A stretch of 42,012 nucleotides of DNA, taken from a virus (Duplodnaviria; Heunggongvirae; Uroviricota; Caudoviricetes). The number at the start of each line of letters is the position of its first letter. Within the stretch, counting starts at the first letter, position 1. Positions 5,617 through 20,145 of this stretch are shown here, piece by piece. The position numbers and the translations under genes were made by a program. The notes under the pieces were generated by a model. That model did no database searches and was not told where the DNA came from. It worked only from the letters and a program-made list of their open reading frames with translations. The stretch lies in IMG/VR virus record IMGVR_UViG_2563366969_000002; one strand, written 5' to 3'.

Positions 5617-5749
5617 TTTTTGGGACTCCTGGCTGATTAAGTATGTCGATAAGGCGTTTCCATCCGTCACGTAATTTACGGGTGATTCGTTCAAGTAAAG
5701 ATTCGGAAGGGCAGCCAGCAACAGGCCACCCTGCAATGGCATATTGCAT
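5585..5749 (-). CDS. cIII: cIII (protects cII from FtsH)
   Basis: Hand translation gives [54 protein letters not shown], matching recalled lambda cIII (54 aa); below the ORF-track size cutoff. Confidence 0.75.
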   Translation of the reverse strand: MQYAIAGWPVAGCPSESLLERITRKLRDGWKRLIDILNQPGVPKNGSNTYGYPD

Positions 5750-5821
5750 GGTGTGCTCCTTATTTATACATAACGAAAAACGCCTCGAGTGAAGCGTTAT
5801 TGGTATGCGGTAACGCCGCGC

Positions 5822-12415: not shown

Positions 12416-13435
12416 ATGTGTTATAGCAATGTTACAGATCGTGATCTTATGGGGCAAATTGCTACTAAATTAAATGACTATCGAAACCCTCCTCAAGGTG
12501 GCATGAGCATTGATCATGTTAATCGATGGATTAATCAATTTGAGTTAACCGATAGGCGATTTGTCTTAGAGGAAACGGACCGATTAATGGGGATTGGATA
12601 CTTCTCTGAGAGCGACTATCGCAGAGTTATTAGTAGTATCGCCAATGATGAGCAAAATGAAAGGTTCTTTCAAACCGCAGCGTTTCTCGATATCCAGAAC
12701 CAAGGCACCAGTCAATCTGAGTTTTTGGATTTGCTTCGAGAAGATTGTGTAGAAGAATTCAACGTTGTGACCAGACTGTCACAACGTCAAAGAGTTAGTT
12801 CATTCCGTGAATTTATTTACCTTGACGATGTTTCATTCTCAGGAGCTAAGGCAATCAATGATTTAACTTGGTTTATTGAGCACTTTGAACTCCAAAATAT
12901 TACAATATTGGTGTACTTTTTAGGCGGGCACACGTATTCAGCATGGAAGATAAAAAACCAACTTGAACGAAAATTTGCTGATAGGAATATTTCAGTTTGC
13001 GTTGGTGGTGGTGAGTTTGCAGTTGTTGAAAATCAACGCCGAAACAGTTCGAGTTCTGAGGTTTTTTGGCCAAAAGCGCAAAGTGTATCAATACCTGAAT
13101 GGGCTGACGGTCAAGTACATTATTTAGGAACATATCGTGACGGTTACGTCGCGAATAATTTTTTCCCTAATGAGCAGAGACGAGATCGTTTTGAAGCAAT
13201 TATGACAAAAGTTGGGTTTGATATCCTTGGTCAGAGTCAAAATCCTTCTGATGTTATAAAGCCTTTAGGCTTTTCAACTTTCAATGGTGTTGGGTTTGGT
13301 GGAACTATCTTTACTTTCAGAAACTGCCCCAATAATACCCCTCTAGCGTACTGGTGGGGAACTTATCTTCGAACGGGAAATAGAGCTCTGGATTGTTGGT
13401 ATCCACTTATGAAGCGTAATGTGTATAATCGGTGA
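12416..13435 (+). CDS. Unknown 339-aa protein, gene A of inserted two-gene module
   Basis: ATG at 12416 with AGGAA 6 nt upstream; AT-rich by eye; no confident family. Weak resemblance of FIYLDDVSFSGAKAI to the PRPP-binding loop of phosphoribosyltransferases (low confidence). Confidence 0.75.
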   Translation: MCYSNVTDRDLMGQIATKLNDYRNPPQGGMSIDHVNRWINQFELTDRRFVLEETDRLMGIGYFSESDYRRVISSIANDEQNERFFQTAAFLDIQNQGTSQSEFLDLLREDCVEEFNVVTRLSQRQRVSSFREFIYLDDVSFSGAKAINDLTWFIEHFELQNITILVYFLGGHTYSAWKIKNQLERKFADRNISVCVGGGEFAVVENQRRNSSSSEVFWPKAQSVSIPEWADGQVHYLGTYRDGYVANNFFPNEQRRDRFEAIMTKVGFDILGQSQNPSDVIKPLGFSTFNGVGFGGTIFTFRNCPNNTPLAYWWGTYLRTGNRALDCWYPLMKRNVYNR

Positions 13436-14049
13436 TCATGAGCTATAGACTATACCTGTTTCACAACACAGTTTCTTTCAGGAAAACCACCGAGAAATGG
13501 GGTGGTCTTTCCAACATGGCCAAAGGATATCCGCTCTTAGTTAATGGTATACCCATTCAATCGAGTGAAATTCTTTACCAAGCATGCCGATATCCAGACT
13601 ATCCAGATATCCAAAAGGCTATTATTACCCAAGGCAACCCTTATGAAGCTAAACAAACCGCCAGATCTTTCGAAGCCAAAACCCGTGCAGGTTGGGAAAA
13701 AAATCGAGTTTCGGTAATGAAATGGTGTGTCTGCGTTAAGCTTTGCCAGAACTGGGAATCGTTTTTCGCGCTCCTGGATAGCACAGGAGAGCATGACATT
13801 GTTGAGCACTCAGAGAAGGACCAATTTTGGGGGGCTAGTAAAGACTCCGAAGGTAACTTTTATGGTATGAACGTGTTAGGTCGTATCCTTATGGATGCGA
13901 GAGATGTTGCAAGAAAGAAGGGGCTTTCAGGGTTTGCTACGATACCGCCGCTACCCTTGGATAGGTTTCTTCTGCTCGGGGAGCAAATACGTGATGTTAC
14001 TTTCTCTCCACTACCGATGAATTCGGGGCAAAGCTTATCGCTTTTTTAA
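13432..14049 (+). CDS. NADAR / YbiA-like (DUF1768) protein, gene B of inserted module
   Basis: 205-aa ORF; start overlaps gene A stop (GTG 13432 in GTGA, or ATG 13438). Matches the recalled YbiA/NADAR pattern: SNM..(Y)..SSE.LYQA.....WE..RV.VM......K..QN.....LL.STG...IVEH...D.FWG......GN.LG.ILM..R. Confidence 0.7.
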   Translation: MIMSYRLYLFHNTVSFRKTTEKWGGLSNMAKGYPLLVNGIPIQSSEILYQACRYPDYPDIQKAIITQGNPYEAKQTARSFEAKTRAGWEKNRVSVMKWCVCVKLCQNWESFFALLDSTGEHDIVEHSEKDQFWGASKDSEGNFYGMNVLGRILMDARDVARKKGLSGFATIPPLPLDRFLLLGEQIRDVTFSPLPMNSGQSLSLF

Positions 14050-16125: not shown

Positions 16126-16815
16126 ATGAATACCCAATATTTACAGTATGTCCGCGAGCAACTCATTGTGGCTACCGCTGATTTGAGCGGAGCAACGAAA
16201 GGCCAGCTTGAAGCCTGTCTGGAGCATGCACAATTTGATACTGGTACATACAAACGAAAGAAGCCGCGCATTCTGGATGAGGTAACTGGCAGGATGATTA
16301 CGCTGGATAATCCGCCGATTTCCGGTAAGCAGTCGTACGCAAAAGGTTCATCCATTGCACTGGTCAGCCAGGTTGAGTTCTCAACCTCGTCATGGCGCCG
16401 CGCGGTTCTGTCTCTCGATGAACATCAGAAAGCGTGGTTGCTGTGGAGTTACAGCGAAAGTGTTCGCTGGGAGCATCAGGTTGCCATAACGCAGTGGGCA
16501 TGGAACGAGTTTAAGGCTCTGTTAGGTACAAGAAAAATTGCCAGTAAGACACTGGAACGCTTAAAGAAGTTGATCTGGCTGGCAGCACAGGATGTGAAGA
16601 GCGAGCTGGCTGGGCGTGAGACTTATGAATACCGGGAACTGGCATCACTGGTGGGAGTGACATCAAAAAACTGGTCTGAGACATTCACTGAACGCTGGGT
16701 TGCAATGAAGCACATTTTTCTACAGCTTGATAGCGAAGCTTTATTGCTTGTAACGAGAACACGTTCAAAACAAAAGACCACATTTTCACAGCAAAGTATT
16801 GCAAAACTGGATTAA
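16126..16815 (+). CDS. Putative late antiterminator Q (position-based)
   Basis: 229-aa ORF immediately upstream of a pR'-like promoter and the conserved late leader; not lambda Q by sequence, assignment rests on synteny. Confidence 0.45.
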   Translation: MNTQYLQYVREQLIVATADLSGATKGQLEACLEHAQFDTGTYKRKKPRILDEVTGRMITLDNPPISGKQSYAKGSSIALVSQVEFSTSSWRRAVLSLDEHQKAWLLWSYSESVRWEHQVAITQWAWNEFKALLGTRKIASKTLERLKKLIWLAAQDVKSELAGRETYEYRELASLVGVTSKNWSETFTERWVAMKHIFLQLDSEALLLVTRTRSKQKTTFSQQSIAKLD

Positions 16816-16889
16816 AAAGCATATATTTTATGTAAATCTGATATTCTGCCAATGTTGTATGTGCAACTGTTCGTAGATGTAGTAAGGGT

Positions 16890-16918
16890 TGACTATCCAA
16901 TTTCTAGGATATAGATTT
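16890..16918 (+). promoter_or_regulatory. pR'-like late promoter
   Basis: TTGACT - 17 nt - TAGATT; downstream leader (…GGCGGCTCCCAAAAGATAACCGCCAAGTTGGTAACTTCGAC…GGACTCCAACC…GAGAGGTCGAC) resembles recalled lambda late leader / 6S region. Confidence 0.45.
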
Positions 16919-17036
16919 TTCTGCAATAAAGGTTTTGGGAATGAAGGGGCGGCTCCCAAAAGATAACCGCCAAGTTGGTAACTTCGACTCGATAATTGGT
17001 CTGGGACTCCAACCGTGTCGGCTGAGAGGTCGACGT

Positions 17037-17840
17037 CTATTTCTTTTTGGGAAGTGGATACTTTAAGCTAACATTTTGAGTTTCTATATCTCGTGGCCCT
17101 CGAGTTTTATCATAAAAATACCAGATATTAAATTTTCTCTCAGTGTGCCATGTATCATATTGCAAGTGATCCCAGCCTAAATATGAAGCAACATAGTTTG
17201 ATACTCTTATTTTGGCTTCAGATGAAGCTTTTCCTTGATATGCGCACATAACCGCACCTAAGAAAAAATCGGCTAGCTGAATGTTTTCAGATGCTTTAGA
17301 GTCTTTTGTCACTACACTGCTGATTATCCCTTTACGACCAAATTTTCTATTCAATATGTTATTGGCAATAACATTTAGTTCTTCATCAGCCTTTTTATAA
17401 CGAGATGCGATAGGATCAACTTCAATCCTGAAGTAACTGTCTCTTTCAGGGTGTGCAGAAATTACAGAGCTAATTTTTGTGGTAATGAGATTTGTGAAGT
17501 GCTTTCTCCTTGCCAGGTCATAATCTCCATTATGAAATGCCTTATTTACTATTGATTTTTCAACCACGATACAATGAAAAGCTAGCCAAGGAACTCTAAA
17601 GAATAAGTCGATCAGCTCAAGATAAAATTCAGAGTATCTTTTTGAATGGGCTTTTTGCCATTTTATTTCTTCAAAAAAACCATGTTTTCTGCGTAGTTCT
17701 CTGATTAGTTGACAGAAATCCCCACGGCGTTGGTACTTCATCCACAGACTGCCAAAGCCGTAGAAACGTTGTCCATCAATGCCAGATTCATCGCAAGCAA
17801 TATGCCAAATTAACTTACCAATGTTATCTTTTTCTGTCAT
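17037..17840 (-). CDS. Unknown protein, possible DUF3800-like; antisense moron between late leader and lysis genes
   Basis: 267-aa ORF, AT-rich by eye, opposite to late transcription; N-terminal IWHIACDESGIDGQ resembles the DESG motif I recall for DUF3800 proteins (low confidence). Confidence 0.65.
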   Translation of the reverse strand: MTEKDNIGKLIWHIACDESGIDGQRFYGFGSLWMKYQRRGDFCQLIRELRRKHGFFEEIKWQKAHSKRYSEFYLELIDLFFRVPWLAFHCIVVEKSIVNKAFHNGDYDLARRKHFTNLITTKISSVISAHPERDSYFRIEVDPIASRYKKADEELNVIANNILNRKFGRKGIISSVVTKDSKASENIQLADFFLGAVMCAYQGKASSEAKIRVSNYVASYLGWDHLQYDTWHTERKFNIWYFYDKTRGPRDIETQNVSLKYPLPKKK

Positions 17841-18068
17841 CTGCTGGTAATACTCTTAGTCCTTAAAGCATAGTATTTAACCATACATGTAACTCATTGA
17901 TAAAGATCGTTTTATGCAAGTTGCATATATTGGTTTTTGAAGGCCATTCGCTTGGTTATAAGATTTTTTAGTTATTTTGAATTGACTGTTTATAACAATA
18001 TTTCCCATGTAAGTTTTTAATCATTAGCGTCCCGGCCTTTCGTCGGCGGCGAAACATTGGCTATTCAT

Positions 18069-18374
18069 ATGCACGAAAAAGAGAGCCTTGCCGGAGCATT
18101 CTGGCTCGTTTTGCTGATCATCGCAGGTTGGGGCGGTCTGGTCCGCTACCTGATAGATGTGAAGCAGAGTAAAGCAACGTGGAGTTGGATAAATGCTCTG
18201 GCTCAGATAGTGGTATCGGGATTCACCGGTGTTATTGGTGGCCTGATCAGTATCGAAAGTGGATTCAGTATTTACATGATTCTCGCGACAGCGGGGATTA
18301 GTGGTGCGATGGGTTCGGTTGCACTGACGTACTTCTGGGAACGACTGACAGGGGTGAAAAATGCAAAATCTTAA
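18069..18374 (+). CDS. Putative holin
   Basis: ~101-aa protein from ATG 18069 (listed ORF starts at TTG 18057); three hydrophobic segments; directly upstream of and overlapping endolysin R. Confidence 0.6.
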   Translation: MHEKESLAGAFWLVLLIIAGWGGLVRYLIDVKQSKATWSWINALAQIVVSGFTGVIGGLISIESGFSIYMILATAGISGAMGSVALTYFWERLTGVKNAKS

Positions 18375-19326: not shown

Positions 19327-19620
19327 TTATTGTGAGCAATACACACGCGCTTCCAGCGGAGTATAAATGCCTAAAGTAATAAAACCGAGCAATCCATTTA
19401 CGAATGTTTGCTGGGTTTCTGTTTTAACAACATTTTCTGCGCCGCCACAAATTTTGGCTGCATCAACAGTTTTCTCCTGTCCAATTCCCGAAACGAAGAA
19501 ATGATGGGTGATGGTTTCCTTTGGTGTTACTGCTGTCGGTTTGTTTCCAACAGTAAACGTCTGTTGAGCACATCCTGTAATAAGCATTGCCAGAGCGGCA
19601 GAAAACAACATTTTTTTCAT
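19327..19620 (-). CDS. bor: Bor lipoprotein (serum-resistance moron)
   Basis: From internal ATG: MKKMLFSAALAMLITGCAQQTFTVGNKPTAVTPKETITHHFFVSGIGQEKTVDAAKICGGAENVVKTETQQTFVNGLLGFITLGIYTPLEARVYCSQ, matches recalled lambda Bor. Confidence 0.9.
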   Translation of the reverse strand: MKKMLFSAALAMLITGCAQQTFTVGNKPTAVTPKETITHHFFVSGIGQEKTVDAAKICGGAENVVKTETQQTFVNGLLGFITLGIYTPLEARVYCSQ

Positions 19621-20145
19621 CTTATTATCCTGCATTGTTAAAAACGGCAGAATCCTATGTGACAACAATTAAACGATAGTTAAATGGATTGATGAAATTT
19701 AAAACTATATAGGTGTACGGTCAGACTATTGGAGGTAGTCAGGATTTGAATGTCAGTCTGTTGTCGGCATTCTGGCAATGCAATTTGGATAAAGCGGGGA
19801 TTAAAAAGATAGAGGCGAGCCGGTCAGGTAGAAATGAATCAGGCTCAAAGTGAAGCGGAAAAGGTCTGTGGCACAAACTGATACAGCCATAATTACAGCC
19901 TGATGATTTGTGGAATGAAACATGTTGAACCTCCTTAATTAATGTTATTCGAGTGAGGAAGGCATTCTGTCCTTCTATAGTGTCCAGTAAATCAAACAGG
20001 AAACTTGTCCAACGTGTTGGACAAGCCTCTCCATTAGTGAGTTGTATTGATCACAACTCTACAAAGAATTCATGACTGCGTAGATGAAAATAGTTTCACG
20101 ATGAATGGAGGAGGCTATGTCGGTGGCTTCTTCATTGGAGTACAT

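Follow-up and report, generated by a model that had tools for sequence, protein, structure and literature searches.

A putative two-gene cassette of lambdoid and P2-like prophages in which a DUF3800 gene faces a small RNA related to lambda 6S RNA

This analysis concerns the interval between the antiterminator gene Q and the holin gene in a 42,012-nt stretch of DNA from a lambdoid Escherichia coli prophage (IMG/VR record IMGVR_UViG_2563366969_000002; the whole stretch is called the window below). We find that the interval carries an accessory cassette that, judged from sequence conservation, comprises two facing genes, each with its own conserved promoter: a minus-strand gene for a DUF3800 protein, predicted to adopt a fold like that of type 2 RNase H, and a plus-strand gene for a pseudoknotted small RNA that ends over the stop codon of the protein gene. 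Gene and RNA are co-inherited across lambdoid and P2-like prophages, and lambda 6S RNA has at its core a pseudoknotted domain of the same fold, which is conserved and covaries. An initial annotation of the region, made from the letters alone, had proposed an antisense, AT-rich moron, possibly DUF3800-like, between the late leader and the lysis genes; all of the sequence features that it listed are confirmed, and its interpretation is borne out in part. The elements of the two genes are as follows.

16889–16917, plus strand: promoter of the small RNA, TTGACT-17-TAGATT (promoter scan), with a predicted start near 16924
16926–17043, plus strand: pseudoknotted small RNA, ≈120 nt (covariance model R1, 105.6 bits; sole copy in the window)
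16933–16940 with 16954–16961, plus strand: pseudoknot (covariation)
16948–16952 with 16967–16971, plus strand: helix P2 (covariation, RNAalifold)
16974–16978 with 17009–17013, plus strand: helix P3 (covariation, RNAalifold)
16986–16989 with 16998–17001, plus strand: helix P4 (covariation, RNAalifold)
17016–17023 with 17028–17035, plus strand: helix P5 with a GAGA loop (covariation, RNAalifold)
17016–17048, plus strand: P5 hairpin and T-run, a putative terminator (terminator scan) and the first terminator-like site past the late promoter pR′
17037–17840, minus strand: DUF3800 gene, 267 residues, RNase H2-like (Pfam, PADLOC, PHROGs, alignment, predicted structure)
17876–17909, minus strand: promoter of the DUF3800 gene, with −35 TTATCA at 17904–17899, a 17-nt spacer, TG at 17884–17883 and −10 TTAAAT at 17881–17876

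The RNA structure was evaluated on an alignment (A2) of 37 distinct sequences, with 32 pairs in five helices including the pseudoknot. We find that 91.5% of cells pair, compared to 78.4% after shuffling, and that 149 cells carry both-sided changes, compared to 51 in the shuffles, with none of 500 shuffles reaching either value; the covariation score is 0.367, as against 0.138 for shuffled alignments and at most 0.104 with slid partners. Double changes are present in 18 of the 32 pairs, including eight of the ten pseudoknot pairs, and 16 of 32 pairs covary in the DUF3800-linked sequences alone (n = 21), while RNAalifold independently recovers the nested helices P2–P5. The covariation counts are inflated by relatedness, but the control with slid partners and the number of independent versions of the pseudoknot speak against an artefact; two rows, L073 and L131, tell against the structure, their 5′ arm being shifted by one alignment column. 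The pseudoknot arm pairs with the loop of a GGCGG/CCGCC hairpin in at least seven compensating versions: UUUGGGA with UCCCAAA and UUUGGGG with CCCCxAAA; GGUAGUGAG with CUUACUACC in lambda; GUGGUGAG with CUCACCAU, GGUAACAAG with CUUGUUAUC and GGUGAUUCAGG with CCUGAGUCAUC; and, in Pasteurellaceae, CACAAAG with CUUUGUG or CACGAAG with CUUCGUG. Long single-stranded stretches of the RNA are invariant in the alignment.

The RNA is assigned to the plus strand because of 140 G-U cells, two of them at invariant P5 positions, and because pairing is higher on that strand (91.5% compared to 80.9% on the minus strand); lambda transcribes this region in the same direction. The element keeps 76–95% identity in comparisons in which the neighbouring gene retains 41–49% at its third codon positions, so the small RNA is itself under purifying selection. 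Coding for a small protein (a 43-residue open reading frame (ORF) here, orf-64 in lambda) was considered and rejected, since the lengths of the element among copies (96, 97, 98, 99 and 102 nt) differ by non-multiples of three and the substitutions are compensatory. No Rfam 15 family matches the RNA in 16880–17070 or 16700–18200 at E ≤ 10, nor does any family at gathering score cover it in the lambda, P2, Pantoea and Pasteurellaceae copies.

The initial annotation had taken TTGACT-17-TAGATT for pR′. The site exists but is not pR′: a probable 82-type pR′ sits at 16799–16827, and the small-RNA promoter lies 90 bp downstream of it. All 28 distinct copies of the RNA subtype found here have a sigma-70-like promoter (7–10 of 12 matches) that ends 10–24 nt before the first pseudoknot arm, in upstream regions that are otherwise dissimilar. 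The lambda-like leader noted earlier is likewise present, a 66-nt stretch (16967–17031) being 77% identical to lambda 44650–44710, which lies within the late leader of lambda, and belongs to the small-RNA gene of the cargo: because this promoter and the lambda-like "leader" accompany DUF3800 into P2-like prophages that have no Q, we conclude that they are cargo and form a separate small-RNA gene. At its 3′ end, the hairpin and T-run (17015–17046) overlap the stop codon at 17037–17039, as originally described, together with KKK codons of the DUF3800 ORF, with the stop just past the hairpin stem; a T-run follows P5 in most DUF3800-linked copies.

A homologue of 16929–17040, ≈110 nt long, directly follows the DUF3800 stop in 10 or more genera, with E. 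coli, unclassified Enterobacteriaceae, Pantoea, Ewingella, Citrobacter, Silvania, Huaxiibacter, Enterobacter and Salmonella as enteric hosts and Rodentibacter and Muribacter as hosts among the Pasteurellaceae. At least 146 RNA copies were classed by pseudoknot version; an exact-pattern scan of IMG/VR, with the pattern taken from enteric copies, contributed at least 120 of the loci, so that the frequencies of the subtypes are not population estimates. Among the matches listed, 44 of the 47 copies of the UUUGGGR subtype face a DUF3800 gene, whose stop lies 66–88 nt past the CCGCC anchor, the three exceptions being two P2-like hotspots without the gene and one contig end; none of the 77 lambda-type copies has DUF3800, nearly all of them lying 143 nt after a lambda-type Q and upstream of S; and none of the 22 copies with other pseudoknot versions has it, several of these being upstream of holins. 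In one of the two hotspots (L049, 3006–3122), a DUF3800-type RNA with its promoter adjoins a hypothetical gene and a gene for an Ogr/Delta-like zinc finger; the lone RNA there and in the other hotspot (L106) could be a remnant after replacement of the cargo or an RNA able to function alone. A 2.1-kb IMG/VR contig (L073) holds two copies of one subtype 1.57 kb apart (417–436 and 1988–2007); the assembly has probably wrapped around a small element that is circular or repeated.

In ≈15 lambdoid contexts among the matches listed, the RNA always runs along late transcription and DUF3800 against it. The pair also occupies loci that cannot hold a late leader: the gpA–gpQ hotspot of P2-like prophages (L036, L048), the isolated P2-like phage Chuche, and a 186/P2-like Salmonella prophage, beside its integrase. 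In P2-like elements the cassette adjoins genes for the plasmid-stability proteins ParM/StbB. The RNA follows the Q gene in phages of at least two unrelated Q families, PF03589 (lambda type) and PF06530/DUF1133, and in the window lies downstream of the promoter of a PF06323 (Q82) phage. Two loci (L124 and L144) show an unusual late-antiterminator architecture directly upstream of the 6S-like leader, a 375-residue ORF that ends 120 nt before the RNA anchor and joins an HNH_3/AP2 N-terminus to a PF06530/DUF1133 Q-like C-terminus. The covariance model does not find the RNA in PhiR47_2, in phage 434 or in the pR′–stx region of 933W, and none is found in non-phage DUF3800 loci of Vibrio, Salinivibrio, Alteromonas, Kangiella, Rheinheimera, Arsukibacterium, Colwellia and myxobacteria, a subset of which was searched with filters off. 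By this distribution, the RNA goes with the phage-borne branch of the DUF3800 protein family.

The protein gene is an ATG-initiated ORF with 501 homologues at E ≤ 1e-3, so it is not a chance ORF; the homologues are mostly ≈265 residues long and chiefly gammaproteobacterial, a few belonging to myxobacteria or other lineages, and all contain PF12686. The resemblance to DUF3800 that the initial annotation saw in an N-terminal motif is confirmed, with a Pfam match to PF12686 over residues 16–197 (profile positions 4–146 of 149) at 42.9 bits against a cut-off of 21 (E 1e-10), and RefSeq names the same protein "DUF3800 domain-containing protein". It also matches the PADLOC candidate PDC-M04A (model PDLC04353, 118.6 bits, E 6.5e-35), as does the P2-type homologue, and phrog_3732 of PHROGs, and has no match in NCBIfam, in a PDB sequence search or to the Pfam RNase HII family. 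Residues D17, E18, D142, Q188 and D191 are invariant in an alignment of 73 homologues, so that the N-terminal DE and C-terminal QxxD described for DUF3800 (PMC7736814) are present as D17-E18 and Q188-x-x-D191. The AlphaFold model is confident (predicted local distance difference test, pLDDT, 91.8; predicted template modelling score, pTM, 0.91), and its best structural match is type 2 RNase H (RNase HII/H2A) at 10–14% identity, with a further conserved C-terminal region (residues ≈200–267) beyond the RNase HII-like part. The model thus predicts a type-2-RNase-H-like fold with an intact D-E-D-D acidic set; the protein stands outside the RNase HII sequence family and has the fold alone in common with it.

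Compared with homologues of 64–87% protein identity, codon positions 1, 2 and 3 are 70–88, 82–96 and 41–49% identical; these per-position values replace the ratio of non-synonymous to synonymous rates, which is not computable because synonymous sites are saturated, and they show that the gene is under purifying selection. An independent promoter, as originally proposed for this gene, is indicated by a ≈45-nt block containing TTATCA-17-TGgTTAAAT (17904–17876), kept upstream of the gene in E. coli, Pantoea, Ewingella, Citrobacter, Salmonella and P2-type loci whose surroundings are unrelated; a generic promoter scan overlooked it, and it was detected by its conservation across genera. A Dam site, GATC at 17906–17909, lies just upstream of the −35 element; most enteric copies retain it, a hint that methylation or replication may influence this promoter. 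Clustering of all ORFs from 31 genomic loci reveals no conserved partner ORF. In Alteromonas (L011, 5804–7334), a non-phage homologue is followed by two ORFs that jointly match PADLOC DitA (split or frameshifted), with mercury-resistance genes and a transposase further along, in a defence and resistance island with no RNA partner; the split DitA-like gene was considered as a partner and rejected as unrelated to the cassette.

The cassette and the features around it are placed as follows.

16126–16815, plus strand: antiterminator gene Q of phage-82 type (Pfam PF06323, 316 bits), outside the cassette
16799–16860, plus strand: probable pR′ of 82 type with the Q-loading region (promoter scan; matches the description of the 82 pR′ in PMC5001585)
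16861–18027, no strand: accessory cassette, 1167 bp, AT-rich (alignment with PV340567)
17910–18027, no strand: AT-rich spacer, specific to the E. coli lineage and kept only in near-identical E. coli prophages
18069–18374, plus strand: LydA-type holin gene (Pfam PF16083; RefSeq start ATG), first gene of the lysis cassette

Several lines of sequence evidence identify 16799–16860 as probably the genuine late promoter. Its −35 TTGCAA (16799–16804) and −10 TATATT (16822–16827) are separated by 17 nt, +1 is A16834, and an extended −10-like pause element follows (TG at 16839–16840 and TATTCT at 16842–16847), with GCC at 16848–16850, exactly +15 to +17, and the pause T16858 at +25; the published pR′ of phage 82 combines a pause-inducing element resembling an extended −10, a discriminator GCC spanning +15 to +17 and a +25 pause at U (PMC5001585). 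The segment is kept in phages that lack DUF3800, up to 16860 (+27) in PhiR47_2 and up to 16844 in 434. Because homology to such phages ends at +27 and the segment fits the 82 pR′, the cassette starts at +28, right after the Q-loading site. A lesson for annotation is that the promoter-like site closest to a Q gene need not be pR′, and that an accessory cassette may, as it appears to do here, provide tR′.

The borders of the cassette are given by PhiR47_2 (PV340567), which shares Q (93% identity) and the holin (98%) with the window and has only 231 bp with two plain terminators between them, where the window has 1167 bp of cassette. Homology to this phage is lost at 16860/16861 and regained at 18028, and the variable cassette is therefore 16861–18027; this bears out the earlier description of the interval as a moron site carrying cargo between Q and S. 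The Q gene is also 93% identical to phage 82 Q in nucleotides. The region is AT-rich as described, with a GC fraction of 0.34–0.40 over 16650–18150 compared to 0.48–0.54 in the flanks. DUF3800 is the sole ORF in a scan from Q to holin, no conserved feature was found in the spacer 17910–18027, and 16700–18200 contains no tandem, direct or inverted flanking repeats that would suggest a ToxI-like RNA or transposition. Over 13 kb the window shares 99.86% identity with a prophage of strain SCU-485, and the locus is present in 67 of 5,426 complete E. coli genomes, 44 of them with a full-length copy (≥95% identity). The partial matches, at least in some cases, resemble that of E. coli SC516 (L172, NZ_CP025048 4694496–4699683), a decayed Rac-like prophage adjoining trkG in which IS1 cuts the DUF3800 gene; the C-terminus of the protein and the RNA are lost and the holin side is intact. 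A megablast search of INPHARED nucleotides with the cassette gives no match, and matches there at the protein level are limited to phage Chuche and P2-like phages of Mannheimia.

The reading we favour, with belief and doubt about equal, is that of a mobile two-gene cassette that encodes an RNA-linked nuclease for phage exclusion, supplies the terminator that serves as tR′, and is silenced by antisense transcription. Both promoters would fire in the lysogen. The RNA would control or partner the nuclease, as a cognate ligand or an antitoxin-like inhibitor, or might instead act by pairing with the complementary 3′ end of the DUF3800 mRNA, and the nuclease would act on RNA or RNA-DNA hybrids and so exclude competing phages. 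A phage-exclusion effector is most likely, since the cassette occupies the P2 tin/old hotspot and the Q–S moron site, the protein matches a candidate in PADLOC, and DUF3800 is found in association with retrons and with CRISPR systems; the defence role suggested earlier is likewise made plausible by the match to PDC-M04A and by a 64%-identical homologue in the gpA–gpQ (tin/old) defence hotspot of P2. Since P5 and its T-run form the first terminator past pR′, we infer that they must act as tR′ here. Without Q, pR′ would give an RNA of ≈213 nt and the internal promoter one of ≈120 nt, both containing the domain. On induction, Q-modified polymerase starting at 16834 would pass the terminator and transcribe the DUF3800 gene in antisense, and it is plausible that this late transcription would silence the effector during the carrier's own lytic growth.

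Several observations weigh against this reading. Some 98 of the 146 copies among the matches listed have the RNA fold without DUF3800, in lambda-type and other late leaders, and the RNA stands without the gene in the P2-like hotspots L049 and L106. Homologues of the protein in Vibrio, Alteromonas, Kangiella, Rheinheimera and Colwellia (61–68% identical, closer than those of Pasteurellaceae) have no RNA within 5 kb, also when searched with filters off, and because such close non-phage homologues do without it, the RNA is not an obligate cofactor of the protein. The T-run after P5 is absent from some copies, and the single sequence, folded at minimum free energy, is not stabler than its shuffles (z 0.16), so that structural support rests on covariation. 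PDC-M04 is no more than a candidate system in PADLOC, and literature searches found no paper that mentions it. The far commoner occurrence of the fold without DUF3800, and the lone RNA in the two hotspots, would suit an RNA that is the primary unit, a 6S-like prophage small RNA acting on host or phage transcripts as StxS does, with DUF3800 as a frequent neighbour or an enzyme of RNA processing or turnover; lysogens contain abundant lambda 6S RNA, and RNAs from pR′ leaders are capable of acting in trans (PMC7547250). We regard this as unlikely, in that one subtype is tied to DUF3800 in 44 of 47 copies among the matches listed, at a fixed distance and orientation, the linkage spans two unrelated phage types and two bacterial orders, and an association between DUF3800 and structured RNAs is general and independently reported (PMC5737381). 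The converse, that the protein is the sole cargo and the RNA-like element a transcriptional insulator or terminator block with no trans-acting or protein-linked role, which blocks read-through from pR′ and elsewhere and terminates the DUF3800 mRNA, draws on the position of P5 and the T-run as the first terminator past pR′, overlapping the stop codon, on the two plain terminators at the equivalent position in PhiR47_2, and on the non-phage homologues that manage without the RNA. One hairpin would be enough for a terminator, however, yet covariation extends over five helices, one of them a pseudoknot, long unpaired stretches do not vary, a promoter that an insulator would not need is aimed at the element in every distinct copy (28 of 28), lambda has a separate tR′ after the domain, and some DUF3800-linked copies have no T-run; we consider this explanation, too, to have little likelihood.

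The convergent arrangement, with an RNA complementary to the 3′ end and 3′ untranslated region of the gene, the nuclease fold and the ParM/StbB genes beside the cassette in P2-like elements would also be expected of a toxin-antitoxin-like addiction module that stabilises the prophage, in which a nuclease toxin is countered by the facing RNA through 3′ antisense pairing or protein binding. This is improbable given that ToxI-like repeats are lacking, that the protein is not a small membrane toxin, that homologues without the RNA exist and are evidently tolerated, and that IS1-truncated copies are found in decayed prophages; such a role and one in abortive infection are not mutually exclusive. 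Very unlikely, in our view, is a DUF3800 protein that serves the carrier's own cycle, by removal of R-loops or primers or by processing of the late leader, and is not aimed at competitors: the type-2-RNase-H-like fold and the position beside the late leader would fit, but the AT-rich gene runs against late transcription and is missing from the viable relatives PhiR47_2 and 434, and it is found in accessory hotspots of P2-like phages and also in non-phage islands.

The locus offers a minimal pair, one protein and one RNA, and since ordinary prophages of E. coli and a P2-like phage isolate carry it, standard lambda and P2 genetics can be applied. We know of no DUF3800 member for which an activity has been demonstrated; literature searches on PDC-M04, PF12686 and DUF3800 found no functional study, and the main text of Rousset 2022 does not mention the gene described here. 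DUF3800 proteins recur beside retrons, Cas12/Cas13 systems and eleven unrelated structured RNAs, the RNA link having been reported in 2017. That DUF3800 genes associate with structured RNAs is thus known; what appears to be new here, from a comparison made with Rfam only, is an RNA with homology to the lambda 6S core paired to DUF3800. The conservation of the lambda 6S core argues for more than a by-product of antitermination, with DUF3800 as the candidate protein partner. A speculative extension, to which we assign a low likelihood, is that lambda 6S and its late-leader relatives form one pseudoknotted RNA family recognised by DUF3800 nucleases, the prophage copy being a cognate ligand that confers self-immunity, acts as a decoy or activates the nuclease. 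Were this true, a prophage DUF3800 protein would sense or cut the matching 5′ leader on late transcripts of invading lambdoid phages, immunity would be keyed to a conserved viral RNA fold, and the lambda 6S fold would gain a function and a protein partner.

Other features were recorded along the way. At 12416–14049 (plus strand), between the replication gene P and the nin region, the 99.86%-identical prophage has genes that RefSeq names "phosphoribosyltransferase-like protein" and then "NADAR family protein", which look like a further accessory pair, for defence or counter-defence, at a different moron site. The sole Rfam family at gathering score in the whole window is Lambda_thermo, the cIII thermoregulator (5704–5762, minus strand, 88.5 bits). 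A bor/iss (increased serum survival) lipoprotein gene lies antisense just past Rz (19327–19668, minus strand), the classic bor position, and is a second antisense moron. Near the early region of two cassette-bearing P2-like elements (L003, 9267–9506; L036, 11977–12174) are Rfam matches to C4 antisense RNA, isrK and c4-a1b1, which we take to be the usual immunity RNAs of P1/P7 type.

The closest known relative of the small RNA is lambda 6S RNA, which was reportedly sequenced in 1971 and for which, to our knowledge, no function is known. One covariance model scores 105.6 bits in the window and 103.6 bits in lambda, where the match covers about +26 to +131 of the pR′ transcript; the two share the five-helix fold, in which the pseudoknot, P4 and P5 show compensatory changes, the same direction, and a constitutive promoter upstream. 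In lambda, the domain lies 143 nt after Q, past the ≈25-nt Q-loading region, and is followed by a separate tR′, and none of the 77 lambda-type copies among the matches listed is accompanied by DUF3800. The window RNA, like 6S, lies between pR′ (+1 at 16834) and the first terminator-like site, and differs in having an additional promoter of its own. StxS of Stx phages, an Hfq-dependent base-pairing RNA, is likewise a short RNA of the lysogen that extends from the late promoter to the first terminator, and offers a precedent for a function of its own; homology was rejected, as the model finds nothing in the pR′–stx region of 933W, and StxS is therefore an analogue and not a homologue.

On the protein side, PMC5737381 describes eleven motifs, DUF3800-I to DUF3800-XI, as structured RNAs beside DUF3800 genes on either strand, often with a 3′ terminator, and as too complex for a simple regulatory hairpin. 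The window RNA matches no Rfam 15 family, a comparison that covers at least the entries DUF3800-I and DUF3800-IX, and it has homologues in phage late leaders and the lambda 6S core, a property not known to be reported for those motifs. DUF3800 proteins are also known as partners of type VII retrons, as Csx32 of Cas13 CASK loci, and as TPR-DUF3800 proteins of Cas12a2/Cas12a3 loci. The window protein resembles them in its PF12686 match, the DE/QxxD motifs, the RNase H2-like fold and its location among mobile elements and defence genes, and differs in standing alone with a small-RNA gene as its partner and no reverse transcriptase, Cas, TPR or kinase partner. A type VII retron was considered and rejected, because reverse transcriptase and msr/msd are lacking and the neighbours are Q and the holin gene. 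The likeness to type 2 RNase H lies, in the model, in an adjacent D-E at the first strand and two later aspartates.

As a pairing of a nuclease-fold protein with a cis-encoded RNA whose 3′ end overlaps that of the gene, the cassette resembles the RNA-antitoxin systems, both type III ToxIN and convergent type I. It departs from ToxIN in that the RNA lies on the opposite strand, 3′ of the gene, and no tandem RNA repeats are present in 16700–18200, and from type I in that the DUF3800 protein is not a small membrane peptide. The insertion sites are those used for cargo by the lambdoid Q–S morons (stx, and tRNAs in 933W) and by the P2 tin/old hotspot. The stx genes are in sense orientation and Q-dependent; the DUF3800 gene is antisense, has its own promoter, and brings a terminator that would take the role of tR′. 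For silencing of the effector during the carrier's lytic growth, the BstA-type prophage defences offer a precedent, since they too need self-immunity at that stage.

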